NCBI GenBank assembly: GCA_020725885.1
Contig: DYEA01000008.1
Location: 72,119 to 136,118 of the forward strand
Origin: Slackia sp.
GTDB taxonomy: Bacteria > Actinomycetota > Coriobacteriia > Anaerosomatales > Anaerosomataceae
Direction: 5' to 3'
Length of the DNA: 64,000 nucleotides
The position numbers and the translations under genes were made by a program. This document shows positions 1 to 48,270 of the stretch, in pieces. Every line of letters starts with the position of its first letter. The stretch's first letter is position 1. The notes beneath the pieces are model-generated. The model saw only the letters and a program-made list of their open reading frames with translations, made no database searches and was not told where the DNA came from.

Positions 1-54
1 TGAAAACCGTTGACCCGCAAGGGTCCGTGGGTTCGAATCCCACCCCCTCCGCCA
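1..54 (+). tRNA. tRNA-Ser(TGA), 3' portion only; the 5' end lies outside the window
   Basis: The sequence tgaaaacc-[long variable-arm hairpin gacccgcaagggtc]-cgtgggttcgaatcccac-cccctccgcca matches the anticodon loop, type-II variable arm, T-arm and CCA end of bacterial tRNA-Ser(UGA). Confidence 0.6.
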
Positions 55-153: not shown

Positions 154-178
154 CGCTTGCGCGCCTTCGGGCGCTCGC

Positions 179-424: not shown

Positions 425-509
425 CGGGAACCGAGCGGCTCCGCCACGAACCGGCGGAGCCGCTTTTGCGTCTGAGCATACGGACACGCCCTTGAGGAAG
501 GAGGCCGTC

Positions 510-1235
510 ATGCTCAGGACGAGACCGGCTGTGCTCGCGTCGCTCCTGCTGGTCGCCGCCGTCATGCTCGCCGGCTGCCAGACGAGAGTCGTGACGACGC
601 CGGGCGAACAGCCCGCCAACACCGTGTCGGCGCGCGGCACCGGCACCGTCGCGACAGCGCCCGACCAGGCCGAGATGACGTTCGGGCTGACCATCCAGCG
701 GAACGACGCCAGAAAGGCGCTCGAGGACGCCTCGGCGATCGCGCGCAAGATCGCCGAAGCCATCAAGAAGGCCGGCATCCCCGCCGAGGACGTCCAGACA
801 CAGAACGTGTCGGTGTATCCGCAGTACTCGGGCGGCGACAAGGGCACGGCTCCTAAGGTGGTGGGCTACAGCGCCAACATCTCCGTCCGCGTCAAGATCC
901 GCGACATCGAGCGCATCGGCGCAGTGATCGCGGCTGCGACGGACGCGGGGGCCACCGAGGTCTCCGGACCCACGTTCACGCTGTCGGAGGACGCGCCGGC
1001 GGCCGCCGAGGCGATCGACGAGGCCGTGGCCGACGCCCGCAGGCGAGCTCAGGCGATGGCGAAGTCCGCCGGCAAGAGCGTCGGCGATGTGCTGAGCATC
1101 TCCGAGGCCGGCGTGGCCGCGCCGCCGCTCTACGCGGGAGACGCATACGGCCGGGTGGCGGCAGCCGACGTCCCGATCGAGCCGGGACAGATCGACGTGT
1201 CGGCCCAAGTCGTCGTGGTGTTCGAGCTGAAGTGA
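510..1235 (+). CDS. SIMPL-domain (DUF541/YggE-like) lipoprotein
   Basis: ATG at 510 has a GGAGG RBS 6 nt upstream, in frame with track ORF 492-1235. The N-terminus has a signal peptide plus lipobox (LAGC). The remainder resembles the 26 kDa periplasmic immunogenic protein / SIMPL family. Confidence 0.8.
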   Translation: MLRTRPAVLASLLLVAAVMLAGCQTRVVTTPGEQPANTVSARGTGTVATAPDQAEMTFGLTIQRNDARKALEDASAIARKIAEAIKKAGIPAEDVQTQNVSVYPQYSGGDKGTAPKVVGYSANISVRVKIRDIERIGAVIAAATDAGATEVSGPTFTLSEDAPAAAEAIDEAVADARRRAQAMAKSAGKSVGDVLSISEAGVAAPPLYAGDAYGRVAAADVPIEPGQIDVSAQVVVVFELK

Positions 1236-1825: not shown

Positions 1826-2643
1826 GCCGCCTGTCGTCGGCTGTCGTTGTCGTGACAGGTTCGACGCGCGGGATCGGACGCGCCATCGCGCAGGGATGCG
1901 CCGAGCGCGGCGCCACCGTCGTGCTCTCGTCGCGGGGCGACGAAGCGGTCCGGCGGGCGGTGCACGAGTTCGCGTCGTCCGGCTGGCGCGCATCGGGCGT
2001 CGCGTGCGACGTCTCGAGACACGCAGACGTGGAGGCGCTGTTCGAGCACGCGCTCGACTACCACGGCCGCATCGACGTCTGGGTCAACAACGCCGGCCTG
2101 TCCGCGGGCTACCGCCACCTCGACGAGGTGCCGCCAGAGGAGCTCGAAGCGATCGTCGGCACGAACCTGCTCGGCACGATGTACGGGTGCCAGCTGCTCG
2201 TCCCCTACTTCCGCGAGCACGGCGGGGTTCTGCTCAACGTCGGTGGGCGGGGCTTCCGTGGCGACGCGACGCCGCACACCGCGGCGTACGCCGCGACCAA
2301 GGCAGCGGTGGCGAGCATCACCCGCAGCGTTGCGGCGGAGAACCGCGACGCGCCCGGACTGCACGTCCACATGCTCGTGCCGGGGATGGTGCCGACTGGC
2401 TTCTACGAAGACATCGCCGTGAGCCCACGGCTCGAACACCGCAGGCACGCGGTCGGTCGTGCGCTGCAGGCGTTCGGGGTCTCGCTCGACGAAGTGGCCG
2501 AAAAGACCGCTGCGCTGCTCGACGGCCCAGCATGGCGCGGCACTGGCCGGACCTTCTCTCTGCTTCCGCGCCACCGGGTGCTCTCAGGGATCGTCCGCAT
2601 GACGCTCGCTGGCGGCACGCCCGGTGGAAAGGGGACCCGATGA
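1822..2643 (+). CDS. Short-chain dehydrogenase/reductase (SDR) family oxidoreductase
   Basis: TGSTRGIGRAIA glycine-rich NAD(P) motif plus the NNAG and YAATKAA (YxxxK) catalytic motifs. The ATG at 1822 overlaps the upstream stop by 4 nt (ATGA). Confidence 0.9.
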   Translation: MSRLSSAVVVVTGSTRGIGRAIAQGCAERGATVVLSSRGDEAVRRAVHEFASSGWRASGVACDVSRHADVEALFEHALDYHGRIDVWVNNAGLSAGYRHLDEVPPEELEAIVGTNLLGTMYGCQLLVPYFREHGGVLLNVGGRGFRGDATPHTAAYAATKAAVASITRSVAAENRDAPGLHVHMLVPGMVPTGFYEDIAVSPRLEHRRHAVGRALQAFGVSLDEVAEKTAALLDGPAWRGTGRTFSLLPRHRVLSGIVRMTLAGGTPGGKGTR

Positions 2644-4300
2644 CCGGCCGGCACGCGAGGCCGCGGCCTCGACACGGCAGGCGCCACGCGACGCCGCCGG
2701 TGATCGACCGGACGCTGCCGGCGGTCGGTCCCGGCGCAAGCACGCGCCGCAACCGCACCCGCTATGCCTCCACGCGCGCACGCCGCCCGCGACGCATCCA
2801 GCCCGGGCGAGCGCTCGCCTTGCTGCTCGGCGCTGGCGTCCTCGTGGCGCTGGCTGCGTTCCTCCTCACCCGTCCCGCGGCGATCGTCGTCAAAGCGCAG
2901 CCCGCGGACGCCGTCATCACGCTCGACGGCTCGGTATCCGCCACCGGCACCCTCGAAGTCCGCGAGGTCGAGCCGGGACCCCACACGATCCGCATCGAGC
3001 GCAAGGGGTTCGAGCCCGTCGAGCGCACCGTCACGGCCAAGCGTATGCGCACCACCCGCGTGCGGGAGACGCTGCGGCCGCAACTCCTCGAGATCGCCGT
3101 GCGCACCGAGCCCGCCGGCGCCACGCTCGTCGTGGCCTGCTCGGATGGGAGCCGGATCGAGACGCTGACGCCCTGCGCCGTGCGCCGGCCGGCAAGACGA
3201 CGATCCGCCTCTCGATGGCTGGCCGAAACGACTTCGAGCGCGCGCTGTTCCTCGACGAACCGCTGTCCTTCGCGTACATCCTCGACCCGAAAGGCCAGCT
3301 CCTCCACGGCCTCGGCACGATCGCGACCGCAGGCGCGCCGAAGGGCGTCTCGATCACCCCCGACGGCAGCGAGGTCTGGACGAGCATCCTGAACGGCCCG
3401 CCCTCGATCGAGATCTTCGAGCCGCGCTCCGGCAAGCGCATCGGGGAGATCGACTTGGGCGAGCACGGCGCCGTCGAGGTCATCTTCAACCGCGCAGGCA
3501 CGCTCGCGTACACGTCGCAGATGGAGACCGCGCTGTGCTTCGAGATCGACGTGAAGACGCGCAAGGTGCTCCGAACGTTCGACACCGAAAGCGCGTGGAC
3601 GAAGTGGGTGGAGCTGTCTCCTGACGAGAAGACGCTCTATGCAAGCAACTGGTCGGGCGACGACGTGTCGGTCATCGACCTCACGACCGGCAAGCTCGTC
3701 CGGCGGATCCGCGTGTCGAACACCCCGCGCGGCATGTACGCGACAGCCGACGGCAAGACGCTGTACGTCGGCGGCTTCGACAGCGGCCAGCTTGACCGGA
3801 TCGACCTCGAAACCGGCAAAGTCACGGTCGCGTTCAAGGGCGGCAAGGCGCTTCGCCACCTCGTGGGGGACGAGCGCACAGGACGGCTGTACATGTCGGA
3901 CATGGGCGCTGACTGCGTGTGGGTGCACGACATGCGCTCAGGTACGACGAAGAAGCTCGTCGACACCGACAAGAAGCCGAACACGATCGTGCTCTCGCCC
4001 GACGGCCGGGCGCTGTTCGTGAGCTGCCGCGGCGAGAACAACCCGAGGTCGTACTACCTGCCAGGCCCCGAGTGGGGCTCGATCCTGGTGTTCGACGCGC
4101 TGTCCGGCAAGCCGCTCGACGCCGTCGTGTGCGGCAACCAGCCGACCGCGCTCGACATCAGCGCCGACGGCCGGCTGCTCGTGTCGAGCGACTTCCTCGA
4201 CAACCGCCTGCGCGTGTATGAGGTGCCGCCGTACGAGACGCTCGCCGCGGGCGGCGGCGGGCGCTACCAGGCGCACTTCGCCGAGATCAAGAAGCGGTGA
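2640..4300 (+). CDS. Membrane-anchored PEGA-domain plus 7-bladed beta-propeller (YVTN/lactonase-like) protein. An apparent 1-nt frameshift near 3183-3190 splits it between two reading frames.
   Basis: ATG 2640 overlaps the SDR stop. The N-terminal part has an Arg-rich tail, a TM helix (ALALLLGAGVLVALAAFLL) and a PEGA domain (VITLDGSVSATGTLEVREVEPGPHTIRIERKGFEP), all in frame 0. A second PEGA domain is interrupted at TLTPCAV|AGKTTIRLSMAGRNDFERALFLD. It continues in the -1 frame through a long beta-propeller (YASNWSGDDVSVIDLTTG..., TLYVGGFDSGQLDRIDL...) to stop 4300. Confidence 0.6.
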
Positions 4301-4410: not shown

Positions 4411-4614
4411 ATGAACGCTTGTCCGCACATCGGCACCTGCTACTTGACGTCTGACGAAGCCGGGTACTCCCCGGAGTTCGCACGTATCGTGCGCTCCAGG
4501 TACTGCCGGAGTGAATACGACGCTTGTGCTCGGTACCGCTTCGCCCGGGTTCTCGGCGACCCGTCGCGCGTCCCCGAGAACCTGCTTCCGACCGAAGGCT
4601 CCATCGCCTGTTAG
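4411..4614 (+). CDS. Small Cys-rich hypothetical protein (67 aa)
   Basis: ATG 4411 follows a lower-GC spacer (cattatcgttattgcaatcacgg) with the palindrome ATTGCAAT. The product MNACPHIGTCYLTSDEAGYSPEFARIVRSRYCRSEYDACARY has four Cys residues. No confident family assignment. Confidence 0.4.
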   Translation: MNACPHIGTCYLTSDEAGYSPEFARIVRSRYCRSEYDACARYRFARVLGDPSRVPENLLPTEGSIAC

Positions 4615-6977
4615 CGACCCTGCGCCGAGTGGCCGCCGAACCTGTTCCGCAACGCCGAGAGCACCTTCCCTGCATACGACGGCCGTTCCGCCGATCGCTT
4701 GCGGAACTCCAGCGACGCTTCGATGACAGGCGCGTCGACGCCGAACGCGCGCGCAGCCAGGACCGTCCACTCCCCCTCGCCCGTGTGCCCGACGACCGGT
4801 GACACCTCGGCCAAGTCCGAGCCGAACACCTCGTACGCCTCGCGCAGCCACCCGACGAGCCGCGATTCGATGACGCTTCGCCGGTTGTAGACCTCGGCCG
4901 CTGCCGGAAGGTCGATACCGAGCGGAGACTCTCTGAGCACCGAGAAGCCCTCGGCGATGGCCTGCATCATGCCGTACTCGATGCCGTTGTGGACCATTTT
5001 GACGAAGTGCCCGCCGCCGTGGCCTTCGAAGAATCGATAGGCGTCCCGCGCGGCCACGTCGCGCCACAGCGGCTCCAGGCGCTCGAAGTCGGCCCGGTCG
5101 CCGCCGACCATGAGACACGCGCCGGCCCGCGCGCCTGCAGGGCCGCCCGAGGTCCCGACGTCGACGAACCGGATGCCGCGCTCGGCCAACGCCCTGGCCC
5201 TGCGCTCGGCGTCCCTGAAGTACGAGTTGCCGCCGTCGATGACGGTGTCGCCCTCCTCGAGCAGACCGGCCAGCCCCTCCTCGCCGAACAGCGCCTGCTC
5301 CGTCGCATCGCCCGCCGGCAGCATCAGCCACACCACGCGCGGCGGCGGCAGGAACGCCACGAGGTCGGCGAGCGTCCGGGCGGGAAGCAGCCCGTCGCCC
5401 GCCATCTGCTCGGCCACCGCATACGTGCGGTTGTAACCGACCACCTGCCACCCGTGGTCGAGCAGGTTGCGCGCGAGCGCCGCGCCCATCTTGCCAAGCC
5501 CGACCACCCCGATGCGCTTCGGAGCCGCATCTGCAGCGTCGAGCCGCGCGAGCGCGCGCTTTCGTACCTCGTCGGTGTCCGGCTCGTACGCCTCGAGCGG
5601 AACCGCGCCGGTCTTCCATACCCCGAGCCACGGGTCGATGAAGCGCCACATCTCGCGCACCTCGTCAGTGCTCACGAACAGCGTCTGGTCGCCTTCGATC
5701 GCGTCAAGCAGCAGCGTGGCGTACTCCTCGACGTACTGCACCCGCTCCTGGCGCTCGTACAGGAAGAACGTGAACTCGCGCTTCTCCAGCTCGTGCTCGA
5801 AACCGGGCTTCTTCGCCCAGAACTCGATGCGGATGGACTCGGTCGGCTCCAGCTGGAAGATCACGCGGTTCTCGTACGGACCGGGTCGGTCGGTGTCGCA
5901 CAGACACGCGTCCGGGGCACGGAACGTCACCGCGATCTGCTTGAGCGGAGGACCCATGCGTTTGCCAGACTCCATCGTCACCGGCACGCCGCCCCACCGC
6001 GGACCGGCAAGGTTGAACCGCAGCGCGAAGTACGTCTCGGTGTCCGAGTCTGGCGCAACGCCAGGAATCGCCCGGTATCCTCCATACTGCGCGCGGAACG
6101 AGCGGGCCGCTATCTCCGCCGGGCTCGGCGGACGCAGCGTCGACAGGAACCGGGCCCGCTGCTCCCGGATCGCCGCCGCCGACAGGTCGCGCGGCCTGTC
6201 CATCGCGACGAGCGCGAGCATCTGGAGCAGGTGGTTCTGACCGACGTCGCGAAGCGCTCCGACGCCGTCGTAGAACGCCCCGCGGCGCTCCACGCCGATC
6301 GATTCGAGCAGCGTGACGTCGATCCGCTCGATGGAGCCGGCGTCCCACGAGGGCTCCATGAGGGTGTTTGCGAAACGGAAGCTCAAGATGCCCTGCAGCA
6401 TCTCCTTCGCGAGGTAGTGATCGATGCGGTAGATCTGTTCCTCGGCGAAGAGCGACCCGAGCACCTCATCGAGCTCTTGCGCGCTCGCCCCGTCCTTGCC
6501 GAAGGGCTTCTCGACGAGCACGCGCGTGCACGGGCCGGCGTCGCCGCACGAGGTGGCGAGCCCGCTTGAAGCCAGGCGCTCGAAGATCGTGCGGTAGTGC
6601 TCCGGCGGCACGGCGAGGTAGAACAGCCGGTTGCAGCCACCTTCCCAGCCGCTGGAGACCGCGCGGATGTCGTCCGCCAGCGCCTCGTAGGCCGCCGCAT
6701 CATCAAACGTCCCGCGCCGGTACGAGAAGCGCTCCACGAATGCGTCGCGCGCAGCGCCTGTCGGCGCCGCGCCGGGATACGCATCGAGCACGGACCGCAC
6801 GTGAGCGCGGAAGTCCTCGTCCGACCAGTCGCGACGCGAGAAGCCGATGACCCGGAAGCGGTCCGGGAGCTTGCCGTTGACGCTCAGGTACGCGAGCGAC
6901 GGGACGATCTTGCGAGCCATCAGGTCGCCCGTCGCACCGAACACGACGAGGGTAGTGGGAGCTAAAGCGCGGTCCAT
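4611..6977 (-). CDS. zwf: Bifunctional fusion: glucose-6-phosphate 1-dehydrogenase (N-terminal ~470 aa) fused to short-form 6-phosphogluconate dehydrogenase (C-terminal ~310 aa)
   Basis: The N-terminal domain carries GATGDLMARKIVPSL and RIDHYLAKEMLQ (the RIDHYLGKE signature) of G6PD. The C-terminal domain carries IGVVGLGKMGAALARNL (Rossmann) and GHFVKMVHNGIEYGMMQAIAEGF of 6PGDH (Gnd/YqeC type). The 788-codon frame is uninterrupted, with RBS GGAAGGAG upstream. Confidence 0.9.
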   Translation of the reverse strand: MDRALAPTTLVVFGATGDLMARKIVPSLAYLSVNGKLPDRFRVIGFSRRDWSDEDFRAHVRSVLDAYPGAAPTGAARDAFVERFSYRRGTFDDAAAYEALADDIRAVSSGWEGGCNRLFYLAVPPEHYRTIFERLASSGLATSCGDAGPCTRVLVEKPFGKDGASAQELDEVLGSLFAEEQIYRIDHYLAKEMLQGILSFRFANTLMEPSWDAGSIERIDVTLLESIGVERRGAFYDGVGALRDVGQNHLLQMLALVAMDRPRDLSAAAIREQRARFLSTLRPPSPAEIAARSFRAQYGGYRAIPGVAPDSDTETYFALRFNLAGPRWGGVPVTMESGKRMGPPLKQIAVTFRAPDACLCDTDRPGPYENRVIFQLEPTESIRIEFWAKKPGFEHELEKREFTFFLYERQERVQYVEEYATLLLDAIEGDQTLFVSTDEVREMWRFIDPWLGVWKTGAVPLEAYEPDTDEVRKRALARLDAADAAPKRIGVVGLGKMGAALARNLLDHGWQVVGYNRTYAVAEQMAGDGLLPARTLADLVAFLPPPRVVWLMLPAGDATEQALFGEEGLAGLLEEGDTVIDGGNSYFRDAERRARALAERGIRFVDVGTSGGPAGARAGACLMVGGDRADFERLEPLWRDVAARDAYRFFEGHGGGHFVKMVHNGIEYGMMQAIAEGFSVLRESPLGIDLPAAAEVYNRRSVIESRLVGWLREAYEVFGSDLAEVSPVVGHTGEGEWTVLAARAFGVDAPVIEASLEFRKRSAERPSYAGKVLSALRNRFGGHSAQGR

Positions 6978-7078
6978 CGTTCTCCTTCCATGCAGGCACG
7001 CGGGAAGTGGTACCCGCGCGCTCGCCCGCTCAATCAGCGCAGCGGTGCGCGCCTACGGAGAGGGGGTACACTGTCTAC

Positions 7079-7819
7079 ATGGCACACTCGACAGCCATCG
7101 CCGAGATCGCCGGCCGCGACAGCGTCGCGGCGGCGGTGGTCGCCGTGCGCGAGCACGGGTTCACGACGATCGTCCCCACGATCGGATTCACCGGCACGGA
7201 GACCGGCGACCGAGAAGCCCCGTACCGTGCCGTGAGCCGTCTCCGGAACCTGCTCGCAGAAGAAGCGGCGGTGCTTGACCCGGTGCCGCTGTCGGACCCT
7301 GCGCTCTGGTCGGCGATGAACGCGGCGCCGATGGCAGAGGTGCTCAGACGCTACGGGGTCTGCTCGCCCTGCCTCGCGTGCCACCTGTACCTGCACCTGC
7401 TCCGGGTCCCGCTCGCCTGGTCGCACGGCAACGCACCGGTCATCTCAGGCGAGCGCGATTCGCATGATGGCCGCATCAAGCTCTCGCAGACGTCGCACAG
7501 CATCGATGCCGCCACGCGCGTGCTCGCGTACGCGGGAATCCGGCTGCTCGCGCCGATCCGCTCGATGGGCGGGACGGAGATAGCAGCCATAGTGGGATCC
7601 GAGTGGCGCCAAGGCGAGCAGCAGATGGGCTGCCAGCTGTCGGGCAACTACCTCGCGCTGGACGGCAGCGTGCAGTACGACGAGACCGGCTACGAACGCT
7701 ACCTGCGCGAGTTCTTCGAACCCGTCGGCCGCGCCGTCGTCGACGCGTACCGGGCGGAGCGCGACGGCGGCAGCGCCAGCGACTTCGCCGCAGTGGTGGG
7801 GTCGGTGCTCGCGCGGTGA
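7079..7819 (+). CDS. Hypothetical protein with PP-loop-like motifs (AGRDS / SGERDS) and a CSPCLACH Cys cluster
   Basis: ATG 7079 is in frame with track ORF 7007-7819 and follows GGAGAGGGGG. The motifs weakly resemble the adenine-nucleotide alpha-hydrolase (PP-loop) superfamily. The specific function was not recognised. Confidence 0.5.
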   Translation: MAHSTAIAEIAGRDSVAAAVVAVREHGFTTIVPTIGFTGTETGDREAPYRAVSRLRNLLAEEAAVLDPVPLSDPALWSAMNAAPMAEVLRRYGVCSPCLACHLYLHLLRVPLAWSHGNAPVISGERDSHDGRIKLSQTSHSIDAATRVLAYAGIRLLAPIRSMGGTEIAAIVGSEWRQGEQQMGCQLSGNYLALDGSVQYDETGYERYLREFFEPVGRAVVDAYRAERDGGSASDFAAVVGSVLAR

Positions 7820-7847: not shown

Positions 7848-9158
7848 GTGCTAAGACCTGGCGCTTCATCGCTCCCCGTCGTCATGGTCGTCCTCGACGG
7901 CCTCGGGGACCGTCGGCACGCCGTGCTCGACAACCGCACGCCCGTCGAAGCCGCGCACACCCCGAACCTCGACGCGCTCGCTCGGCGTGGGCGGTCCGGC
8001 GTTCTGTACCCGCTTGCGCCCGGCCTTGCCCCGAGCTCCCACCAGGCGCACTTCGCGCTGTTCGGCTACGACCTCGAGCGCTTCCCCGGCCGCGGGCTTC
8101 TCGAAGCGCTCGGCGAAGGCGTGCCGCCTAAGCCTGGCGAGGTCGTCGTCCGGGCCAGCTTCGCGAAGGTCACGGAGCGGGACGACGCGTACTGGATCGT
8201 CGAACGGCCGGATCCGCGCTCCGGCGAGATCGACCTCTCAGGCCTCGACTTGGATGCCTCTCTCCACGGCGCACGCGCCAGCTTCGTCTACACGGGCGGC
8301 CTGCAGGGGCTGCTGTTCCTGCGGAGCGAGGGCGGCGCGCCGTTGTCGCACTTCGTGAGCGACGCCGACCCGCTGGAAGCGGACGCGCCTGTGCTCGAGG
8401 TTCTGCCGCTCGAAGAAGCGCCGGATGCTGACGCAGCCGCTCGCACCGCCTCGGCGCTCAACGCCTGGATGCGGCACACAAGGCGCGTCCTCGCCGGACG
8501 CCCGCTCGACTTCGCGCTCGTGAAGTGGGCCGGCGAGCGCTGCGACGTGACGCCGTTCGAGCAGCGCTACGGCCTTCGCGGCGTCTCGCTCGGGGCAGGG
8601 CCGCTGTACGCGGGGCTCGCCGCCGCCGTCGGGCTCGACCACATCGAGATCCCGATGCACCGCGATCCGTTCGAGGACGTCCGGGTGCGCACGGCCGAGA
8701 TGCTGCGGCTGCTCGACGACGGCTACGAGTTCGTCCACCTCCACACCAAGCACCCCGACCACGCCGGCCACACCAAAGATCCGCGCCACAAGGCCGACGT
8801 CATCGCCGAGATCGACCGCGCGCTCGAGCCGCTCGTCGAGCTGGCGGAGCGGGGCAGCGCCGTCGTCGTGGTGTGCGCCGACCACCAGACGCCGTCAGCG
8901 GGTCCGCTGTACCACGGCGGCGGCCCTGTCCCGCTCGTCATCGCAGGCGGAGCCGACGGACCCGACGCCGTCCACGTCTTCGGCGAGAGCGCGTGCGCGC
9001 ACGGCTGCCTCGGGACGCTCAGGGGCGCCGACGTCTTGCCGCTCGCGCTCGACGCCGCCGACCGCTCGGCGTTCCTGGCTGATCGCATGACGAGCCGCCT
9101 CGCGCTCGGCATGCAGCGTCAGGCGGCCCTCACGCCTCTTCGGTCAACGGAACGCTAG
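7848..9158 (+). CDS. apgM: Metalloenzyme-superfamily phosphoglycerate mutase, archaeal-type cofactor-independent (ApgM-like)
   Basis: VVMVVLDGLGDR ... TPNLDAL N-terminal motif and C-terminal His/Asp metal ligands (HLHTKHPDHAGH) match ApgM. GTG 7848 has a GGAGG 7 nt upstream. Alternative ATG start at 7884. Confidence 0.75.
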   Translation: MLRPGASSLPVVMVVLDGLGDRRHAVLDNRTPVEAAHTPNLDALARRGRSGVLYPLAPGLAPSSHQAHFALFGYDLERFPGRGLLEALGEGVPPKPGEVVVRASFAKVTERDDAYWIVERPDPRSGEIDLSGLDLDASLHGARASFVYTGGLQGLLFLRSEGGAPLSHFVSDADPLEADAPVLEVLPLEEAPDADAAARTASALNAWMRHTRRVLAGRPLDFALVKWAGERCDVTPFEQRYGLRGVSLGAGPLYAGLAAAVGLDHIEIPMHRDPFEDVRVRTAEMLRLLDDGYEFVHLHTKHPDHAGHTKDPRHKADVIAEIDRALEPLVELAERGSAVVVVCADHQTPSAGPLYHGGGPVPLVIAGGADGPDAVHVFGESACAHGCLGTLRGADVLPLALDAADRSAFLADRMTSRLALGMQRQAALTPLRSTER

Positions 9159-11428: not shown

Positions 11429-12241
11429 TCAGCGAACGGGCACGACGGCCGCTCTCCGCGCCTGGAATGCGCTGCACAACCCCTCGAACGAGACCTCGTC
11501 GAGCTCGAGCGTGCTCGTCCGCCGGCCCATCTCGTCGAGCGAGTGCGAATCCGACGAGCAGACGTGGGCGATTGCCAGGCCGTCCCGGAAACGGCAGCGC
11601 GCGGAGTGGTCGATGAGCTCGATCGCATGCACGTGCTCGCACTCGACGAGGTCGTGGACCAGGTCGGAGTCGATGAAGCGGTAGTCGCCGAAGGTTCGGT
11701 CGACGTGGCCGACGATGCAGATGCCGCCGAGGTTGTCGATGAGCGCGGCGACCTGACGGGGGTCTTCGTCGACCCACAGCATCGGGAGGTCGGGGATGGA
11801 GGCCGGCATGCGAGGCAGCCCGAGCCCGTCCATCAAGGCCGCGAAGTCATCTGCGTAACTCTTGGGCGAGAAGAGCGCGACGAGGTGCGTCTCTTCTCCG
11901 GAATGCCGCACCTTGATCTCGCTGCCGGGGATGACCAAGAGCCGGCGGCCGGTCTCTGCTGCCACCTCATCGGCGGCAGCCAGCAGCAGCGGCGCCCACA
12001 GCACGCTGAAGTGGTCGGTCGCGCCGAAGACGTCGATGCCGACCTCGAGCGCGCGCTCGACGACCGCGCGAGGCGTCGTCGCCGCATCGCCCCGGTAATC
12101 GTTCGGGATGAGCGGGGTGTGGTTGTGCAGGTCGACGGTGACGTATCGCAACCGGTCCTCCTGGGTCCCATCATACGCCTTCTCTTCGGCTCTCGACCGC
12201 TGCGTTACGCCGGGCCTGCAGACCTGTCGCGCAACGTTCAT
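11429..12241 (-). CDS. PHP-domain metal-dependent phosphoesterase
   Basis: VDLHNHT ... GATDHF ... CSSDSH His/Asp motifs match the PHP family. The start overlaps the upstream activase stop (ATGA). Confidence 0.75.
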   Translation of the reverse strand: MNVARQVCRPGVTQRSRAEEKAYDGTQEDRLRYVTVDLHNHTPLIPNDYRGDAATTPRAVVERALEVGIDVFGATDHFSVLWAPLLLAAADEVAAETGRRLLVIPGSEIKVRHSGEETHLVALFSPKSYADDFAALMDGLGLPRMPASIPDLPMLWVDEDPRQVAALIDNLGGICIVGHVDRTFGDYRFIDSDLVHDLVECEHVHAIELIDHSARCRFRDGLAIAHVCSSDSHSLDEMGRRTSTLELDEVSFEGLCSAFQARRAAVVPVR

Positions 12242-12996
12242 GCAGACACCCTCTCGCTCAGTGCGCTCAACGCCGCGCCGTACGCGCCCACGATCTGCGC
12301 CTCGTCAGGCACGAGCACCTCGCCGTCGAACCCCGCCCGTATGAGAGCGACCATCGCCGGGTTCTTGGCCACGCCGCCAGCGAAGACCAGCGGGCCGCGT
12401 GCGTTCACGCGTTTGAGCGCGCCCAGCGTGCGCCGCGCAATCGACTCGTGCAGCCCGCGGGCGATGCGCGCACGGTCTTCGCCGCGATGCACAAGCCCCG
12501 TGACCTCGCTTTCGGCGAAGACCGTGCACATGCTGGAGATCGCGACGCCGGCATCCGCAGCAAGCGCCGACGCCGCCATCTCCTCGAGCTCGAACCCGAG
12601 GGCGCGCGCCATGACTTCGAGGAACTTGCCGGTCCCCGCGGCGCACTTGTCGTTCATCTCGAAATCGACGACCTTGCCACCGGATCCAAGCGCGATGACC
12701 TTCGTGTCCTGACCCCCGATGTCGAGCACCGCTCGGGCTTCAGGAAACAGCTTGTGCGCGCCGAAGCCGTACGCGGTGATCTCGGTGACCGGCGACCCGC
12801 CGAACCGCTGAGCAGCGGCGTGCCGCCCGTACCCCGTCGCGACGATCACATCGTGGCCGCCGCGGGCGACGAATGCCTCCGCGACCGCCTGCGGGTCGAA
12901 ACCGGAGTCGGCAACCGCCCAATCCACGATGCGGCCATCGTTCAGCCACACCGCATCGACGCTGCGAGAGCCGATGTCCAATCCGAGAACGCGCAT
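12238..12996 (-). CDS. CoA-substrate-specific enzyme activase (2-hydroxyacyl-CoA dehydratase activator HgdC/YjiL family, BadF/BadG/BcrA/BcrD ATPase)
   Basis: MRVLGLDIGSRSVDAV N-terminal ASKHA motif. ...VATGYGR... NDKCAAGTGKFLE and SSMCTVFAESEV match the cluster-bridging Cys region of the activases. Confidence 0.85.
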   Translation of the reverse strand: MRVLGLDIGSRSVDAVWLNDGRIVDWAVADSGFDPQAVAEAFVARGGHDVIVATGYGRHAAAQRFGGSPVTEITAYGFGAHKLFPEARAVLDIGGQDTKVIALGSGGKVVDFEMNDKCAAGTGKFLEVMARALGFELEEMAASALAADAGVAISSMCTVFAESEVTGLVHRGEDRARIARGLHESIARRTLGALKRVNARGPLVFAGGVAKNPAMVALIRAGFDGEVLVPDEAQIVGAYGAALSALSERVSA

Positions 12997-13068
12997 GCCT
13001 GGCCCTTCGTGGGGTCTGGAAGCCGCCGCTCGGCGACGCGCTCCGGCCGTCCCACCTTCTCTGTGACG

Positions 13069-14355
13069 CTACAGCATCTCCAAGAATGCCTCGACCCGCG
13101 TCGAAAGCTGGCCGATGTCTTCCATCGAATAGTCGGTGTCGATCTTCAGCAGCGGGATGCCCGCTTCTTGAGCAGCGCGCTCCACGTGCGTCGCCTCGAT
13201 CTGGTACGGTCCGCAGAACTGCAGCGCGTAGTGCACGATGCCGTCGGCCTTCCACTCGCGCGCCATGTCGATCACATCGCTGCAGCGCGCATCGTTCGGC
13301 GTGAAGCATGCGCAGTTGATGTCGAGATACTTGTCTGCGATAGCGTCGAGCAGCTCGTCCATCGTGGTGTCCTCGCCCATCTCTGGGACGAGCTTGCTGT
13401 AGTAGCGCGAGCCGGTGCACAGCTCCTCTTGCACGACCACGCCGCCCGCCTTTTCGATGACGTCGTGCACCTTCCAGTTGGGGATCGCCATCGGCGTGCC
13501 CGTCACAAGGATCCGCTTGGCTCCCTTCGGGGCAGCACCCACGCCGTTCGCGACGCGCTGCTCGAGCTCGTCAGCGATCTGGTTCACCATCTGCGTGAAC
13601 CGCGCCACGTCGTCATAGAACGCGACCTGCACGGCCAGGAGCGCGTCCTTCCCGCTGATCGGAACCGGGTCGGCCTTGCGAGCGGCAGCGACCCGCTGAA
13701 GCGCGCGGCGCTTGTCGTTGACTTCTTTGATCGCGGCGCGAAGCCCGTCGGCGGTGATGTTGTTGCCGGTCAGCTCTTCGACCTTTGCGACCAGCTCCCT
13801 GATCTCCGCACGCCAGAAGTCTCTATCGCGCTCCCGCTTCATCTGCGGCAGCTCCATGACCCACACGTTGTGGAGCTCGCCGAGGAGCTCGTACGCCTTC
13901 TTCTTGCCGTCGCAGGTGGTCTCGCCGATGACGAGATCGGCTTCTTGGATGTACGGGCAGACCTTGCCGAGCTTGAAACCCATGAACGACTTGATGAGCG
14001 CGCACGTGTTGCGCGGCATGATGCGCTCGACCTCGTCGTACGCGAACTCGGCGCCCGCACACAGGCCGACGCACCACGCGCCTGCGGCTCGGACTATCTC
14101 CTCCGGGACGTACAGGCAGAAGGTGCCGACCACCTTGCCGCCTTGTGCTCGGAAGTCGTCAAGCTCCTTGATACGCAGGCCGTGGATCTCGCTGATCACG
14201 AAGTCGAAGTACGACATGCCCTCGGGACGGTTCTGCTGAGACAGGTACGCGTCCGCGTACAGAGGGCCGACCGCTGCGAGGAGCGCATCGTGCGCGTCGA
14301 GGTCAAGGCCGAGCTTCTCCCACATCGGACGGTAGTCGACTGGCTGGTCGGACAT
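13069..14355 (-). CDS. 2-hydroxyacyl-CoA dehydratase / benzoyl-CoA reductase BcrC-BadD-HgdB family protein (stand-alone double-cubane-cluster-protein-like, YjiM type)
   Basis: 428 aa with a PF06050-like Cys pattern (CLYVPEE, CAGAEF, TTCDGKKK, CTGSRYY, CACFTPNDARCS, FCGPYQ). It is followed by the activase gene, the typical DCCP-plus-activase pair. RBS GAAGGAGG. Confidence 0.8.
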   Translation of the reverse strand: MSDQPVDYRPMWEKLGLDLDAHDALLAAVGPLYADAYLSQQNRPEGMSYFDFVISEIHGLRIKELDDFRAQGGKVVGTFCLYVPEEIVRAAGAWCVGLCAGAEFAYDEVERIMPRNTCALIKSFMGFKLGKVCPYIQEADLVIGETTCDGKKKAYELLGELHNVWVMELPQMKRERDRDFWRAEIRELVAKVEELTGNNITADGLRAAIKEVNDKRRALQRVAAARKADPVPISGKDALLAVQVAFYDDVARFTQMVNQIADELEQRVANGVGAAPKGAKRILVTGTPMAIPNWKVHDVIEKAGGVVVQEELCTGSRYYSKLVPEMGEDTTMDELLDAIADKYLDINCACFTPNDARCSDVIDMAREWKADGIVHYALQFCGPYQIEATHVERAAQEAGIPLLKIDTDYSMEDIGQLSTRVEAFLEML

Positions 14356-16261: not shown

Positions 16262-17290
16262 AGACGTCACTCGAAGTATAGACGAGGCCAGCCGATGAAC
16301 GAGCAGGCGAGCTACAGCCGTGCCTGCTCTCGATGCCAGTCCAGCCGGTCGACCGAGGGCCAAGAAGATCTGTCTCGCGGTAAGTGGATTCGCCTGCCGG
16401 CATAGTCCGCGTAACGAGTACTTGCCAACTCGGGCGACACAAGCAGTCTCTGGGAACTGGTGTCGACAGCCACAAGGAACAGGTCAAACAAGTCGTGCAT
16501 GTCGGCACGGAGCAGCAATCCGTTGTCTACTCGATTCGACGCCGGCCCGCGATACGGCTGAATATGCGCAGCTTCTAGCGCGTCGTCAGCGTCGTATTCC
16601 GAAAAGGCGCATCGTCCCTCGTAAGCCACTAGGAGTTGCTTCCTGAAGTACGGCTGGCCTTGGCGCCTGACAACAGAGGCAATGACGCGCTGGCGTTCGT
16701 CTACGCGGTCTGCCGCTGTTGGCTCAGCAGCCCATGAAATCAGCGCCAATTGCTCACTCGGCTTCTTCAGCACAAAGGCGGTACCATCGAAACCTGCTGG
16801 CCCTGACAGAATGTAGTATCCGTCTCTGTAGTCACTGACAAAGCCAAGCCCGAGAACACGATACGCACTCGAACCGTGCACAGGCGCTGCCATCAGTACC
16901 CCGACCGGAATGCCAGCCTCGCGACACAAGTCGAGCGCACGATTCCGCGCTTTGCCGTAGCGGTCCTCTAGACCCTCACCTTCCTGGTGGTACTGGTAGA
17001 CCCAAGTGCCATCTACCTCGTAGGGCGGGAGGTCTTCATACACTCTTCGGTGGCTCTGCATGACGCTCAGCGCGTACGGGAGCCCTGAGGGCTTCCATAT
17101 CCCGAACTGCGGCCCTGAGACACGATATGCCAAGCCCACGTCCTGTGGCCGCTGACGAAAGACCTGCCCTTCGTTCTCCTCAAACCAAAGCAGCACGTCC
17201 AGATGTGACTGCTCGATCTCGACACGCCTGATTCCTGTCTCGATGACCGGCATCGCCCCCGCCTCCGCCGTCGCTCCCCTGCTCGACGCC
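16262..17290. other. Lower-GC (~56-58%) insertion patch carrying an HNH endonuclease, between serS and pheA
   Basis: The local base composition drops from the ~70% background. It is flanked by two housekeeping genes on the same strand. Confidence 0.5.
16312..17253 (-). CDS. HNH endonuclease (HNH_2 / McrA-like; putative type IV modification-dependent restriction enzyme) with an uncharacterised N-terminal domain
   Basis: C-terminal YEGRCAFSEYDADDALEAAHIQPYRGPASNRVDNGLLLRADMHDLFD matches the HNH motif (H...N...H). RBS GGAGG. The gene has low GC. Confidence 0.7.
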   Translation of the reverse strand: MPVIETGIRRVEIEQSHLDVLLWFEENEGQVFRQRPQDVGLAYRVSGPQFGIWKPSGLPYALSVMQSHRRVYEDLPPYEVDGTWVYQYHQEGEGLEDRYGKARNRALDLCREAGIPVGVLMAAPVHGSSAYRVLGLGFVSDYRDGYYILSGPAGFDGTAFVLKKPSEQLALISWAAEPTAADRVDERQRVIASVVRRQGQPYFRKQLLVAYEGRCAFSEYDADDALEAAHIQPYRGPASNRVDNGLLLRADMHDLFDLFLVAVDTSSQRLLVSPELASTRYADYAGRRIHLPRDRSSWPSVDRLDWHREQARL

Positions 17291-21797: not shown

Positions 21798-22763
21798 TCA
21801 CATAGGCGGGATGTTGGTAAGAACTAGTTCGCTAATGGAATTTCGGCGAGACCCTTGCGCCGCAATTACTCGGGGGGCGCGAATCGTATGGACACGCAGA
21901 CCGGCTTCTTTAGCATCCCGGCTCTCGTAAAGCGCCCGTATGCGTTCCGTATCGCTGTTGCTAACTACTACTCGAATCCCCGGGTGGGTCTCGAGTATCT
22001 TCAGCACGGACAAGAAAAGGGTCTGGTGATCTTGCCAGCCGAACCCCTGGGAGGTGTACGAGGTGAACGACCCCTCATCTCCTGCGTCATATGGCGGGTC
22101 CAGATAGACAATGTCGTTACTACCAACGCACTTTAGCGCGTCCTCGTAGCTTCCACTCAGAAGTGCAATACCCTGAAGGAGACGCGAGAATCGTTTCAGA
22201 CGGGGGCCGGTAGTTGCCAGGAATGCCGCCGGCTGATTAGCAGCAGGTCTGCCGACCGGCACGTTGAATTCACCTCGCGAGTTAACTCGCCAAAGGCCGT
22301 TGAAGCAGGACCTGTTCAAGAACAGCAGGAGGGCCGCCCTTCTTGTTCTCTCTTCGCTCGTCGAGTCGCCAGCCTTGCTGATTAGCTCATTCATTTCGTC
22401 TCGTCGATCGAGGTAGTAGCGCCGGAAGGACTCCTCACCAAGGCAGCTTTCGGCCTCAGCTGCAATCTGTCCAATCTCGCCCAAGAGAGCTTCAAGCCGG
22501 TCCCTGCACACGGAGTAGAGGTTGATAATCTCCGTGTTCGCATCTGCCAGCAGCCCTCGCAGCGGCTGTACATAGCAGGTTAGTGCTGCGCTGCCGGCAA
22601 AAGGCTCCACCAAGCGAGCATCACCGCCTGGAGCCCATAGAGCTTCAAGCGCTTGCGGACCAAGAATGCGAGCTAGCTTGGGAGCGATTCTCCACTTACC
22701 CCCTGCCCACTTAAGTATCGGGCGTACAACGTCTCGCTGGAACACAGGGGTGCCTGCGTTCAT
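21798..22763 (-). CDS. Dam-family (D12 class) N6-adenine DNA methyltransferase
   Basis: PILKWAGGKWR (AdoMet motif I), FLNRSCFNGLWRVN and the DPPY catalytic motif (VYLDPPYD). The ATG at 22763 overlaps the upstream stop (ATGA). Confidence 0.85.
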   Translation of the reverse strand: MNAGTPVFQRDVVRPILKWAGGKWRIAPKLARILGPQALEALWAPGGDARLVEPFAGSAALTCYVQPLRGLLADANTEIINLYSVCRDRLEALLGEIGQIAAEAESCLGEESFRRYYLDRRDEMNELISKAGDSTSEERTRRAALLLFLNRSCFNGLWRVNSRGEFNVPVGRPAANQPAAFLATTGPRLKRFSRLLQGIALLSGSYEDALKCVGSNDIVYLDPPYDAGDEGSFTSYTSQGFGWQDHQTLFLSVLKILETHPGIRVVVSNSDTERIRALYESRDAKEAGLRVHTIRAPRVIAAQGSRRNSISELVLTNIPPM

Positions 22764-23299
22764 GATTGCGCCTGGTCGGATGGGTGGGGTATCAGCTTGC
22801 CACGCGACGAACGCCTGCATACCAACTCGAATCCAAACCTATCGCGAAGGTCGGTCTCGGCCTTAACGATTTCGGCGGGAGAAGTGCTGGAAGAGGTATC
22901 CACAAGGAAAAGCGCTGAGCGCTTGAAGCCCGCGCATGAATACAGGGCCGCCTGTCCAATCGCTCCAGACAGCACGCTGTTGCTCTTGGACTGAGCAAGA
23001 AGCTTGACTTCAACAGCGAGCACCAACTCCTTCTTCCAGACGACGGCAACGTCCGGGTAGAACCAGCGTCCCAGCATATGGTACGCGTAGGCTTGCTGGC
23101 CGGTGCCATCCCCAAACACCACGATGCCTTCGCCCGCAAGATCGCTGAGACAGGACTTCACAAGGGGGACGAGAGCCCTTGCGGTATAGGCAATTTCCTT
23201 CTCTTGGTGCGCTGGTGCTGGAATCTCATGCGTGCGGAGAACCCCGATTAAGCGCAACGCAAGGGCTTCGATATGTCGAGGTTCCGGATCGCGGCCCAT
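22760..23299 (-). CDS. Small (179 aa) PD-(D/E)xK nuclease-fold protein; candidate cognate restriction or nicking endonuclease (MutH/Sau3AI-like?)
   Basis: YPDVAVVWKKELVLAVEVK supplies a D...E-x-K catalytic triad in restriction-endonuclease-like spacing. The gene is translationally coupled to the methylase. Confidence 0.45.
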   Translation of the reverse strand: MGRDPEPRHIEALALRLIGVLRTHEIPAPAHQEKEIAYTARALVPLVKSCLSDLAGEGIVVFGDGTGQQAYAYHMLGRWFYPDVAVVWKKELVLAVEVKLLAQSKSNSVLSGAIGQAALYSCAGFKRSALFLVDTSSSTSPAEIVKAETDLRDRFGFELVCRRSSRGKLIPHPSDQAQS

Positions 23300-23301
23300 A
23301 T

Positions 23302-24594
23302 CTACCCTTTCAATACGTCGTCGAGATCCGGGCTGGGTCGAAGCTGCCTGACGATACCCTTCTTCTTGGCTTCATCAGACTCGGAGACATCCATGAGAAC
23401 CTCGGCCACACGAGCCGCTCCGGCAAGCCCTGCGATGCCCTTCCAGCGCTCGTCGGATTTCCTCAGCAACTCCTCATCGATGGCAGCAAGCCTGCGCCTG
23501 AAGTCCTCGGTGGACACCCTTTCATGTTCGACCGCCTCGTCGAGCAGCATCCCGCCAAACTTGGCAAAACCGCCCAAGCCTATCGATTGCATGAGGATGT
23601 AATCCGCCCGGTTCTGCCAAGCGGTCGGAAAAGCCTCCTTGACTGCGCGCCAGTACCGGTCAATCAGCTCAAGCAATGCATCGGGATCGTCTTTCAGAAC
23701 ATAGGCCGTCCTCGGAGCGTTCTTGATTTGATAGTCGATGGTTGACTTCAGCGCATTTAGCTTTACCGGCGGAGTCTTGCCGCCCGTTGCACGCAGGACG
23801 CCTCGCTTGGATCCCCCGAGGAAGACAACGCCTTCGAATGCGCGCCCGCTCTTGCTGAGCTCGTGGGCAATCCACAAGGGCAACGTCTTCGGGTTCGACT
23901 TCAGTTGGTTTGGGTCATGCAGCCTCACGGCGAGGTTGTCCAGATGGGCCGTCTCCATACCCTCGTGCTCGCCGTTGATATCTCTGAATAGCGCGGCTTC
24001 CGGTGTATCGTCCAACCCAATCAGCAGCGAGAACGGCACGACGGGGAAGACCAGTGGCTCCTCGTCATCTGAATCGGTCATCTGTGCAAGGTAGTCGTCC
24101 GCTCCGTACAGCCGATGATTGCCATCAACGCGACTAATCTGTGGCTTGTAAAGTGGTTTCGGGAATTCCAGGCGTTCGACAAGAACTCGCAAACCAACGA
24201 CCGAGGGTAGCTCCGCCGAGTCGGAAAAGGAGTCCACCTCCAGCACGCTAGAAGGGTTCTCGAGTTCATATATCTCGATGACTCGCGGGTCCCGTACATT
24301 CAGCAACACTTCGGGGAAGAACCTGGGATCCTCCTCTGGTGCTACGAAGGGGGACTTGATGGCGTATTCAAAGCACTCCTGCGCATGCTTCTTCTTCAAC
24401 GCCCTCTGGGTGCCCGTGGGATTCTCGTATTGGTCATACACATCTGGGGCAGAGATGATGGCAAGCTGGTCCAGGCGACCATGACCCCTAAGAACAACTA
24501 GATTCAAGTTGCCACCTAGCAGGCATGGACCGAAATCGATGCGGCTGCTGAATCTCCTCAGCACCAGTTCGCGACTATGCAGCAAATCAGCCAT
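23302..24594 (-). CDS. DGQHR-domain protein (DndB/DpdB-like ParB-fold protein)
   Basis: QISRVDGNHRLYG is a DGQHR-motif variant. It is the first gene of the island operon, 3 nt before the nuclease-like gene. RBS GGAGAGGAG. Confidence 0.65.
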   Translation of the reverse strand: MADLLHSRELVLRRFSSRIDFGPCLLGGNLNLVVLRGHGRLDQLAIISAPDVYDQYENPTGTQRALKKKHAQECFEYAIKSPFVAPEEDPRFFPEVLLNVRDPRVIEIYELENPSSVLEVDSFSDSAELPSVVGLRVLVERLEFPKPLYKPQISRVDGNHRLYGADDYLAQMTDSDDEEPLVFPVVPFSLLIGLDDTPEAALFRDINGEHEGMETAHLDNLAVRLHDPNQLKSNPKTLPLWIAHELSKSGRAFEGVVFLGGSKRGVLRATGGKTPPVKLNALKSTIDYQIKNAPRTAYVLKDDPDALLELIDRYWRAVKEAFPTAWQNRADYILMQSIGLGGFAKFGGMLLDEAVEHERVSTEDFRRRLAAIDEELLRKSDERWKGIAGLAGAARVAEVLMDVSESDEAKKKGIVRQLRPSPDLDDVLKG

Positions 24595-24889
24595 TGATTC
24601 CGCTCCTCTCCAAATAGTCCTCTCAAGTTCATTGCTAGTCTACAAGACCGGCCTGACATTGATTGGACCTTCAAGAACGCTCCCTGTCCGAACAATCGCA
24701 AGCATAAGATTAGGGCCCGCCGGAGGGGCGACCAGCGGGCCCTTTCCGCTGCCACCAGATTCTTTCCAGCGCCCGAGGCAGCGGGTTCTCGGCGCTAGCG
24801 CCCACTTCAGGAGCGCCTACCGAATCTGATTGTGGTATCGGCACGAACACCGCTCGGGTTGAGCCGATTTCTGGCAAGCGCCCGCAGCG

Positions 24890-34666: not shown

Positions 34667-34881
34667 TCGTGTGCGAATGAGGATACTACCATAGGTCGCG
34701 CGCAGAGAGGAACACCTGGCATCGGTTATGCTGCACATCCGATGCGGAGACGTTGCACCGCCGCGGGCCGCAGCCCCGATTCGCGGCGCTCACCACGCCG
34801 CCTTGTGGCAATGGTCACAAGAGTGGTGTAGGATGTAGTGAATCGTGCGTGGCGTCCAAAGCTGCATGTTGGAGGACACGC

Positions 34882-45528: not shown

Positions 45529-45604
45529 GCCCTCGTAGCTCAGGGGATAGAGCACAGGTTTCCTAAACCTGGTGTCGCAGGTTCGAATCCTGCCGGGGGC
45601 ACCA
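45529..45604 (+). tRNA. tRNA-Arg(CCT)
   Basis: GCCCTCG-TA-GCTCAGGGGATAGAGC-A-CAGGT-TT-CCT-AA-ACCTG-GTGTC-GCAGGTTCGAATCCTGC-CGGGGGC-A-CCA. A TATACT -10-like hexamer lies about 12 nt upstream. Confidence 0.9.
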
Positions 45605-48255: not shown

Positions 48256-48270
48256 AGGAAGGGGCCGGCC

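Follow-up and report, generated by a model that had tools for sequence, protein, structure and literature searches.

A natural fusion of glucose-6-phosphate dehydrogenase and short-chain 6-phosphogluconate dehydrogenase in Anaerosomatales and Patescibacteria

Can both dehydrogenases of the pentose phosphate pathway's oxidative part (oxPPP) reside in one bacterial polypeptide? The question is raised by a 64,000-nucleotide stretch of DNA from Slackia sp. (assembly GCA_020725885.1, contig DYEA01000008.1, positions 72,119 to 136,118), referred to here as the window. Its minus strand contains an open reading frame (ORF) of 788 codons, 4611..6977, that starts with ATG and has no internal stop. A sequence-only reading of the window described this ORF as a complete glucose-6-phosphate dehydrogenase (G6PD) joined to a short-form 6-phosphogluconate dehydrogenase (6PGDH), which would place steps 1 and 3 of the oxPPP in a single chain. 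The ORF list and the Pfam and NCBIfam matches agree with that description, and the peptides that it quoted, GATGDLMARKIVPSL, RIDHYLAKE, GVVGLGKMG, GHFVKMVHNGIEYG and the junction ...EAYEPDTDEVRKRALARLDAADAAPKRIGVV..., are all present in the translation.

Two complete dehydrogenases in one reading frame

Pfam places G6PD_N (residues 11-195, 182 bits) and G6PD_C (residues 199-469, 251 bits) in the first part of the protein and NAD_binding_2 (residues 488-643) and 6PGD (residues 656-765) in the second, with the 6PGD match limited to profile positions 1-116 of 290. The NCBIfam zwf model TIGR00871 scores 430.5 bits over residues 7-466 against an equivalog cut-off of 400.6. The top-scoring model for the 6PGDH half is NF007161 (329.1 bits against a cut-off of 271, residues 488-786), and gnd_rel TIGR00872 also exceeds its threshold (319.6 bits against 297.2, residues 488-785). 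The long-chain gnd models TIGR00873 and NF006765 score far under their own cut-offs, and the Glucosamine_iso (PF01182) lactonase domain has no Pfam match in the 788-residue protein at E ≤ 0.01. Among PDB entries, the first half has G6PDs as its sequence relatives and the second half has the short-chain 6PGDHs 6vpb, 8ihe, 10gw and 4e21. The 6PGDH half has a single, non-duplicated helical hemi-domain, and its best PDB relatives are 332-358 residues long. These results confirm that a complete G6PD and a complete short-chain 6PGDH share one chain, and the scores above curated cut-offs for both halves assign the fused enzymes to steps 1 and 3. The reverse complement of 6978-6989, immediately 5' of the ATG, is GGAAGGAGAACG, and it contains GGAAGGAG, a strong Shine-Dalgarno element predicted to bind the ribosome.

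Motif conservation was read from a set of 33 fusions that includes Patescibacteria proteins and from a 58-sequence alignment of Coriobacteriia-type fusions (A1). The core residues of the functional motifs in both halves are invariant and the other motif positions are conserved at about 90% or above. In the G6PD half, D186, H187, Y188, K191 and E192 of the active-site signature are invariant in A1, and H249 (in QNHLLQ) is invariant in the 33 fusions and at least 90% conserved in A1. We take the Asp-His pair and H249, the presumed catalytic base, to act as D177, H178 and H240 do in the L. mesenteroides enzyme, and Arg48-Arg49 presumably binds the 2'-phosphate, as in other G6PDs. In the 6PGDH half, H657, K660, M661, H663, N664, I666, E667, Y668 and G669 of HFVKMVHNGIEYG are invariant and the other four positions are at least 90% conserved. 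Residues of this block correspond to Lys183, His186, Asn187, Glu190 and Tyr191 of sheep 6PGDH, in which Lys183 is the general base and Glu190 the general acid (PMC8900737). At the carboxyl terminus R777, F780, G781 and H783 are invariant in A1, and H783 is followed by five residues to the free end of the chain. The segment RNRFGGH aligns with RFGFGGH and RKQFGGH of 6vpb, 10gw and 8ihe. In Gluconobacter, RX2FGXH in the C-terminal helix is the conserved 6-phosphogluconate-binding module of short-chain tetramers and is supplied by the neighboring subunit (bioRxiv 10.64898/2026.01.21.700892).

The loop that would contact the 2'-phosphate of the cofactor distinguishes this protein from its solved relatives. 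Both N516 and R517 are invariant in A1, and in the 33-sequence set asparagine occupies the first position in 31 of 33 and arginine the second in 30 of 33. A review of 6PGDHs gives Asn32-Arg33-Thr34 as the NADP+ 2'-phosphate site (PMC8900737). The fusion carries N-R-T at the position where 6vpb has D-R-D, 8ihe (named NAD+-dependent) has D-H-D and 10gw has D-R-T. The 6PGDH half is predicted to use NADP+ because N-R-T stands where these three solved short-chain enzymes carry aspartate.

The sequence-only reading also placed a short linker between the two enzymes. The junction varies in sequence and in length among the 33 fusions (15-40 aligned columns) and is never interrupted. No in-frame ATG or stop codon lies between the halves, the first methionine of the 6PGDH half sits within the GLGKMG fingerprint, and no conserved cleavage motif is visible in the junctions of the 33 fusions. 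An AlphaFold2 monomer model built on A1 has both folds intact, with a mean predicted local distance difference test score (pLDDT) of 88.2 and a predicted TM score (pTM) of 0.80, and residues 470-484 form a confident helix in it (pLDDT 84-95). In Foldseek, some 490 model columns align with 485-residue G6PDs at a target TM score (TMt) of 0.87, and TMt is 0.86-0.87 against 1dpg, 1e77 and 2dpg over about 488 columns. The helix at 470-484 is therefore modeled as the native C-terminal helix of the G6PD fold and the true connector is only a few residues long. A short connector is thus borne out, and at about 3-8 residues it is even shorter than had been claimed. No solved structure in the PDB covers both halves by Foldseek (maximum query TM score, TMq, 0.55).

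Table 1. Position and basis of the features of the fusion gene and its product.
Feature	Residues	Window position	Strand	Basis
Complete fusion gene	1-788	4611..6977 (stop codon 4611-4613)	-	ORF list, Pfam and NCBIfam matches, homologues
Shine-Dalgarno element (predicted), GGAAGGAG		6982..6989 (4 nt 5' of ATG at 6977)	-	Direct sequence reading
G6PD half (Rossmann and beta+alpha domains, C-terminal helix 470-484)	1-484	5526..6977	-	TIGR00871, PF00479, PF02781, Foldseek
GATGDL dinucleotide fingerprint, G6PD half	14-19		-	Conserved in the 33- and 58-fusion alignments
Arg48-Arg49 after beta-strand 2, G6PD half	48-49		-	Conserved in the 33- and 58-fusion alignments
EKPFG, G6PD half	156-160		-	Conserved in the 33- and 58-fusion alignments
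RIDHYLAKE active-site signature with Asp-His pair	184-192	6402..6428	-	Alignment A1
Junction region, DTDEVRKRALARLDAADAAPKR (G6PD C-terminal helix and connector of about 3-8 residues)	470-487	5517..5570	-	Alignments, model
Short-chain 6PGDH half (301 aa)	488-788	4614..5516	-	TIGR00872, NF007161, PDB relatives
GLGKMG fingerprint, 6PGDH half	493-498		-	Conserved in the 33- and 58-fusion alignments
Asn-Arg-X loop for NADP+ 2'-phosphate (predicted), N516-R517-T518	516-518	5424..5432	-	A1, motif literature
GGNS, 6PGDH half	582-585		-	Conserved in the 33- and 58-fusion alignments
Ser-Gly-Gly loop, 6PGDH half	S610-G611-G612		-	Invariant
HFVKMVHNGIEYG, putative general base Lys660 and general acid Glu667	657-669	4971..5009	-	Alignments
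RX2FGXH module, R777-N-R-F780-G781-G-H783	777-783	4629..4649	-	A1, solved structures

The fused family, its gene order and its origin

A search of 5.8 billion protein clusters for full-length homologues returned at least 120 distinct proteins of 778-816 residues that cover 97-100% of the query at 59-100% identity and carry all four Pfam domains. Their sources are assemblies of NCBI, JGI, ENA and Logan, and one of these proteins (P0001) is 100% identical to the window protein. The 50%-identity library contains 11 full-length co-linear cluster representatives (query residues ~3-10 to 784-786) and about 9 truncated representatives that still span the junction, among 4036 clusters that match at E<1e-30. 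All four domains were found again by Pfam in the full-length P0121, P0127 and P0135 and in P0144 (730 residues). Among 80 species-representative genome loci, one frame runs over both halves in 12 full-length loci and in 1 that is cut by a contig end. The orthologue in GCA_014360605.1 (L081) is 84% identical and has the same 2367 nucleotides with no indel. Substitutions between it and the window gene fall at the three codon positions in the ratio 95/75/283 overall and 5/8/19 over residues 455-500, and this third-position bias is a signature of purifying selection on one continuous frame. Database matches thus cover both domains along the full length of the protein, and the homologues, the single-frame loci and the co-linear orthologue exclude a missed stop codon or frameshift.

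Most named homologues belong to metagenome-assembled genomes of Coriobacteriia or Anaerosomatales. MDI6712574.1, which bears the name 'glucose-6-phosphate dehydrogenase [Anaerosomatales bacterium]', falls in the same 90% cluster as the window protein, and the bacterial fusion proteins in public databases carry the name 'glucose-6-phosphate dehydrogenase' only. Other architectures were seen beside the family. In the 50%-identity library P0242 (768 residues) has a bacterial G6PD followed by a Glucosamine_iso-type 6-phosphogluconolactonase (6PGL), and in P0204 (652 residues) G6PD comes after an N-terminal fragment of 6PGL. P0134 (868 residues) is 60% identical to the G6PD half of the window protein and has a C-terminal extension of about 420 residues without a Pfam match.

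The 80 loci comprise 13 with fused genes, 21 with two genes in the order zwf→gnd, 35 with two genes in the order gnd→zwf and 11 in which the genes are single or distant. Fusion was found in 13 of 34 zwf→gnd loci and in 0 of 35 gnd→zwf loci (Fisher p=2.4e-5), and G6PD then 6PGDH is the only order among the fusions of this sample, which is biased to relatives of the query. Two gnd→zwf loci (L040 and L074) were considered as fusions and rejected, their apparent fused frames being spurious alternative-frame ORFs in high-GC DNA with the high-scoring segment pairs in different frames. The G6PD-first order may reflect a structural constraint that keeps the C-terminal helix and tail of 6PGDH free for the subunit swap.

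Neighbor-joining (NJ) trees of each half place the window gene, L001 and L002 within a clade that is otherwise Patescibacteria-type and holds both fused and zwf→gnd members. With the halves concatenated (73 taxa, 728 columns, NJ) the Patescibacteria-type split appears in 100/100 bootstrap replicates and a grouping with Mycobacterium-type Actinomycetota in 0/100. Both halves fall in the same Patescibacteria clade and therefore share one common history that crosses phyla. Horizontal transfer, in either direction, is the most likely reason that Anaerosomatales and Patescibacteria have the fused gene in common. The zwf and gnd genes of five loci labeled 'uncultured Gammaproteobacteria' (L004, L006, L012 and L030) or 'Actinomycetes' (L010) also nest among Patescibacteria; GC is 0.46-0.55 in the four of these that were measured (L030 excluded), and either the taxonomic labels are wrong or further transfers took place.

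In the unfused members of the clade the zwf stop codon is separated from the gnd ATG by 1-12 nt or overlaps it as ATGA. The nearest relatives of both window halves include such zwf→gnd operons of Patescibacteria. Two-gene operons with a short-chain gnd, in either gene order, for example Geobacter metallireducens Gmet_2618-2620 (PMC2700814), L003 and L014-L077, have the same genes adjoining and differ by a stop codon and a separate start between the two proteins. The unfused zwf and gnd are in the same frame in L003 (4948-4960) and L014 (11408-11423), and these loci are either one mutation short of the fused state or recently split from it. Where the genes are already in frame a single stop-codon substitution would make the fusion, and loss of the zwf stop in a tight zwf→gnd operon is the most likely origin of the fused gene.

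The architecture was singled out by the sequence-only reading as unusual. Rare it is, but it does have a precedent. The G6PD fusions that are well known join G6PD to 6PGL, namely Plasmodium GluPho, the Giardia and Trichomonas enzymes and vertebrate H6PD. They share a homologous G6PD module, with H6PD 8em2 matching residues 9-359 of the window protein, and differ in that their partner is a Glucosamine_iso-type lactonase (step 2), whereas the partner here is 6PGDH. The 6PGDH half resembles the short-chain enzymes of Gluconobacter oxydans (10gw/6xeq), Gluconacetobacter diazotrophicus (6vpb), M. tuberculosis (Gnd2, 8ihe/9ijb) and Geobacter metallireducens (4e21) in its ~300 residues, single hemi-domain, Lys/Glu block and C-terminal RX2FGXH (E 1e-52 to 1e-61). 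Those enzymes are stand-alone proteins and 6vpb, 8ihe and 10gw have aspartate in the cofactor loop, whereas the window protein has N-R-T and an N terminus tethered to G6PD.

The precedent, the one natural G6PDH/6PGDH fusion in the literature searched, is in the diatom Phaeodactylum tricornutum (protein 54663, XP_002183714.1/XP_002185945.1; PMC2173943, Kroth et al. 2008; PMC3148214, Stover et al. 2011). It also joins oxPPP steps 1 and 3 with G6PD first, in one frame across a short spacer, which is 39 nt long in the diatom, and its 6PGL is likewise encoded separately. The diatom protein is eukaryotic and cytosolic; the window fusion is bacterial, has a short-chain 6PGDH of ~300 residues and comes from a family that numbers at least 120 sequence clusters. 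In 2011 the diatom fusion was reported in that species only, with no other match in nr (PMC3148214), and its gene model was disputed (PMC2173943). Since the two halves of the window protein cluster with Patescibacteria sequences, the fusion probably arose independently of the one in Phaeodactylum. A literature search for a bacterial or candidate phyla radiation G6PD-6PGDH fusion found no description; 'zwf-gnd' in the literature refers to engineered operons rather than a natural fusion, and 'G6PDH-6PGDH' in PMC11021460 is an enzyme cascade. The bacterial G6PD/short-chain-6PGDH family is thus undescribed in the literature searched, is already in databases under the name G6PD, and is real, widespread in two lineages and modestly surprising. 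It is not a new kind of system, since the enzymes are textbook ones and the diatom fusion is a precedent.

Proposed function, the missing lactonase and alternatives

The gene very probably encodes a genuine bifunctional oxPPP enzyme, a judgment that takes in the mechanism given here together with the order logic and the origin by stop loss and transfer set out above. The N-terminal G6PD would convert glucose-6-phosphate to 6-phosphoglucono-delta-lactone with formation of NADPH. The delta-lactone would be hydrolyzed to 6-phosphogluconate either spontaneously or by a lactonase encoded elsewhere. Spontaneous hydrolysis of the delta-lactone is chemically possible. The C-terminal 6PGDH would then convert 6-phosphogluconate to ribulose-5-phosphate and CO2 with a second NADPH. 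The fusion would fix a 1:1 stoichiometry of the two NADPH steps, place them under a single promoter and ribosome-binding site, and gather them in one oligomeric particle, the active form of which is probably a tetramer.

The absence of a lactonase nearby, also claimed by the sequence-only reading, was examined by Pfam scans of ~58 ORFs, nearly all of those called over the 64 kb. No DevB/Glucosamine_iso 6PGL, tkt, tal, rpi or rpe was found among them, and tblastn queries with the two halves gave no paralogue of zwf or gnd in the window; on whether a separate copy exists in the genome, this search speaks for the 64 kb. Related loci were read from P0004, P0055, P0076 and P0025. No pentose phosphate pathway gene adjoins the fusion gene in these four Coriobacteriia-type relatives or in five Patescibacteria loci, where the neighbors are a HAD hydrolase, a class II aminoacyl-tRNA synthetase, Dus, VTT, TMEM175 and unknowns, with no pgl, tkt, tal or rpi. 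The claim holds for the DevB/Glucosamine_iso type. A match to the YbhE/Pgl-type 'Lactonase' family (PF10282, 45 bits) does exist in the adjacent beta-propeller gene (2640..4300, plus strand, convergent with the fusion gene), which was considered as the 6PGL and judged an unlikely one. It is a poor candidate because its product would be membrane-anchored, carries a PEGA domain and is frameshifted in the window. Because the orthologue carries a membrane anchor at its N terminus as well as a PEGA domain, the product is probably extracytoplasmic. The gene does not lie beside the fusion gene in L082 and L083. Compared with the intact 553-residue L081 orthologue, residues 1-180 are read in frame +3 (2640-3182) and residues 182-553 in frame +2 (3182-4297), and the break at ~3182 is either a frameshift in a pseudogene or an assembly indel.

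Several points count against the proposed bifunctional enzyme. Neither the window nor the flanks of the fusion gene in the related loci examined contain a 6PGL, so the middle step is unaccounted for locally. The evidence on the bacterial members comes from sequence, with a predicted monomer structure for the window protein. The cofactor prediction rests on a motif, and the fingerprint of the 6PGDH half is GxGxxG, which a review links to a mainly NAD-type tetrameric cluster (PMC8900737). The locus sample behind the order argument is biased to relatives of the query, and the NJ trees are compatible with one or several fusion events.

The missing lactonase could itself be the point of the fusion. 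The small or streamlined genomes of Patescibacteria and Anaerosomatales would then lack any 6PGL and run a lactonase-independent oxPPP, in which a tethered, hetero-functional tetramer limits leakage to the dead-end gamma-lactone, and the gene would have passed from phylum to phylum as a self-sufficient cassette of one gene, 'G6P to Ru5P + 2 NADPH' (glucose-6-phosphate to ribulose-5-phosphate). By keeping both the delta-lactone and 6-phosphogluconate close to the second active site, the tether would replace the missing enzyme. We regard this extension as unlikely.

An NAD+-linked enzyme that serves catabolic glucose oxidation in an anaerobe, rather than NADPH supply, is a decidedly unlikely reading. 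TIGR00872 is named as an NAD+-dependent model, the short-chain 6PGDHs with solved structures either prefer NAD or are dual, and the GxGxxG fingerprint would suit such an enzyme. The loop is nevertheless Asn-Arg-Thr where NAD-type enzymes have aspartate, with both N516 and R517 invariant in 58 sequences, NF007161 ('NADP-dependent') gives the top score for the 6PGDH half, and the presumed 2'-phosphate site Arg48-Arg49 is kept in the G6PD half.

The chain might instead be translated as one and then cleaved into G6PD and 6PGDH, with the fusion giving co-expression only. Some diatom fusion proteins are suspected of being cleaved (Kroth et al., PMC2173943), and the junction sequence is weakly conserved. 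Cleavage is improbable here: in the model the connector takes up only ~3-8 residues, from the end of a confident helix to the first Rossmann beta-strand, and the junction has no visible conserved cleavage motif. A tight operon already provides co-expression, yet the fused state is kept down to 40-60% identity, which suggests that the covalent link matters.

It is very improbable that one half is non-catalytic or repurposed, for example as an NADP(H)-sensing domain or another hydroxy-acid dehydrogenase. The 6PGDH part does belong to the beta-hydroxyacid dehydrogenase superfamily and gives weaker matches to tartronate semialdehyde reductase and HIBADH, but both halves exceed their curated cut-offs while all other models fall far below theirs, and the Lys/Glu/His/Asn set, RxxFGxH and the Asp-His/His set of G6PD are invariant or nearly so. 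An assembly or sequencing artefact joining two genes, as the apparent frameshift ~1.4 kb away in the beta-propeller gene of the same assembly and the separate adjacent zwf and gnd of many relatives might suggest, is effectively refuted by the fused full-length homologues from many independent assemblies, the indel-free orthologue with third-position-biased changes over the junction and the lack of an in-frame ATG from which a separate 6PGDH could start.

Surroundings of the gene and significance of the family

The window is syntenic with L081, with genes in the order SIMPL, LOG-like, SDR, PEGA/beta-propeller (convergent), fusion gene and a divergent pair, in which a conserved hypothetical gene is followed by one for an archaeal-type cofactor-independent phosphoglycerate mutase (iPGAM). 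Promoter and terminator consensus scans around the fusion gene gave no match, and no Rfam regulatory RNA was found near it. The conserved hypothetical gene (7079-7819, plus strand, divergent from the fusion gene) encodes 246 residues from the ATG at 7079, a start shared with L081, has no Pfam match and ends 29 nt 5' of the phosphoglycerate mutase gene (7848-9158). The pattern AGRDS...SPCLACH in its product may resemble that of PP-loop/adenine-nucleotide alpha-hydrolases. On the other side, a cysteine-rich ORF of about 67 residues (4411-4614, plus strand) runs toward the fusion gene, with a 4-nt overlap at the stop codon of the latter. Its pattern is NACPHIGTCY...GYSPEF...YC...CARY...VPENLLPTE, without a Pfam match, and it is kept at the same position in L081 (12576-12370), L084 (10649-10467) and L002 (12669-12457) at 35-71% amino acid identity. 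No gene is called there in L081, and the five homologues found are all hypothetical, the two that are named by organism being from Coriobacteriia.

Other features of the window are separate from the oxPPP. A 912-residue ORF (40111-42849, plus strand) combines FtsW/RodA (residues 92-413) with penicillin-binding protein (PBP) dimerization and transpeptidase domains (residues 489-905), a second apparent fusion, and lies within an FHA/PP2C/PASTA-kinase cluster. RodA and PbpA are usually encoded by separate genes in such clusters. Two minus-strand islets of low third-position GC (21798-24639 and 16312-17253; 0.60-0.67 against ~0.88 elsewhere) hold a D12-class N6-adenine DNA methyltransferase, a 179-residue ORF without a Pfam match, a protein that faintly matches DndB and, in a separate place, an HNH endonuclease. 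These look like restriction or defense genes gained by horizontal transfer. Three plus-strand genes (34753-35967, 49205-50362 and 50436-51617) encode multihaem cytochromes c (Paired_CXXCH_1, cytochrome c3/c7-like), which are notable for a Coriobacteriia genome, and two of them come after a hybrid PAS histidine kinase and three single-domain response regulators (45572-49124). Upstream of an MgtE-N/CBS/PRC-barrel gene (56332-58170) and an Nramp transporter gene (58174-59421) stands an M-box (Mg2+) riboswitch (RF00380, 129.9 bits, 55939-56132, plus strand). An HGD-D gene (2-hydroxyacyl-CoA dehydratase D-component; 12238-14355, minus strand) adjoins a BcrAD/BadFG-type activator ATPase gene, and this pair is kept in L081.

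If both halves of the fusion protein are active, a single gene supplies both NADPH-yielding steps of the oxPPP and lactone hydrolysis is still needed. The hosts are poorly known subsurface Coriobacteriia (Anaerosomatales/OPB41) and many Patescibacteria. The pentose phosphate pathway of the first Anaerosomatales isolates was described only as 'incomplete' (PMC9686372). The database name of the fusion protein mentions G6PD alone, and name-based pathway reconstructions therefore score 6PGDH as absent in these lineages. A possible practical use lies in NADPH-regeneration cascades, which now employ the two enzymes separately. For the biology of these organisms the family is a natural experiment on two questions: why only the G6PD→6PGDH order fuses, which is tentatively put down to the need of short-chain 6PGDH to keep its C-terminal tail free, and whether covalent coupling makes up for a missing lactonase.

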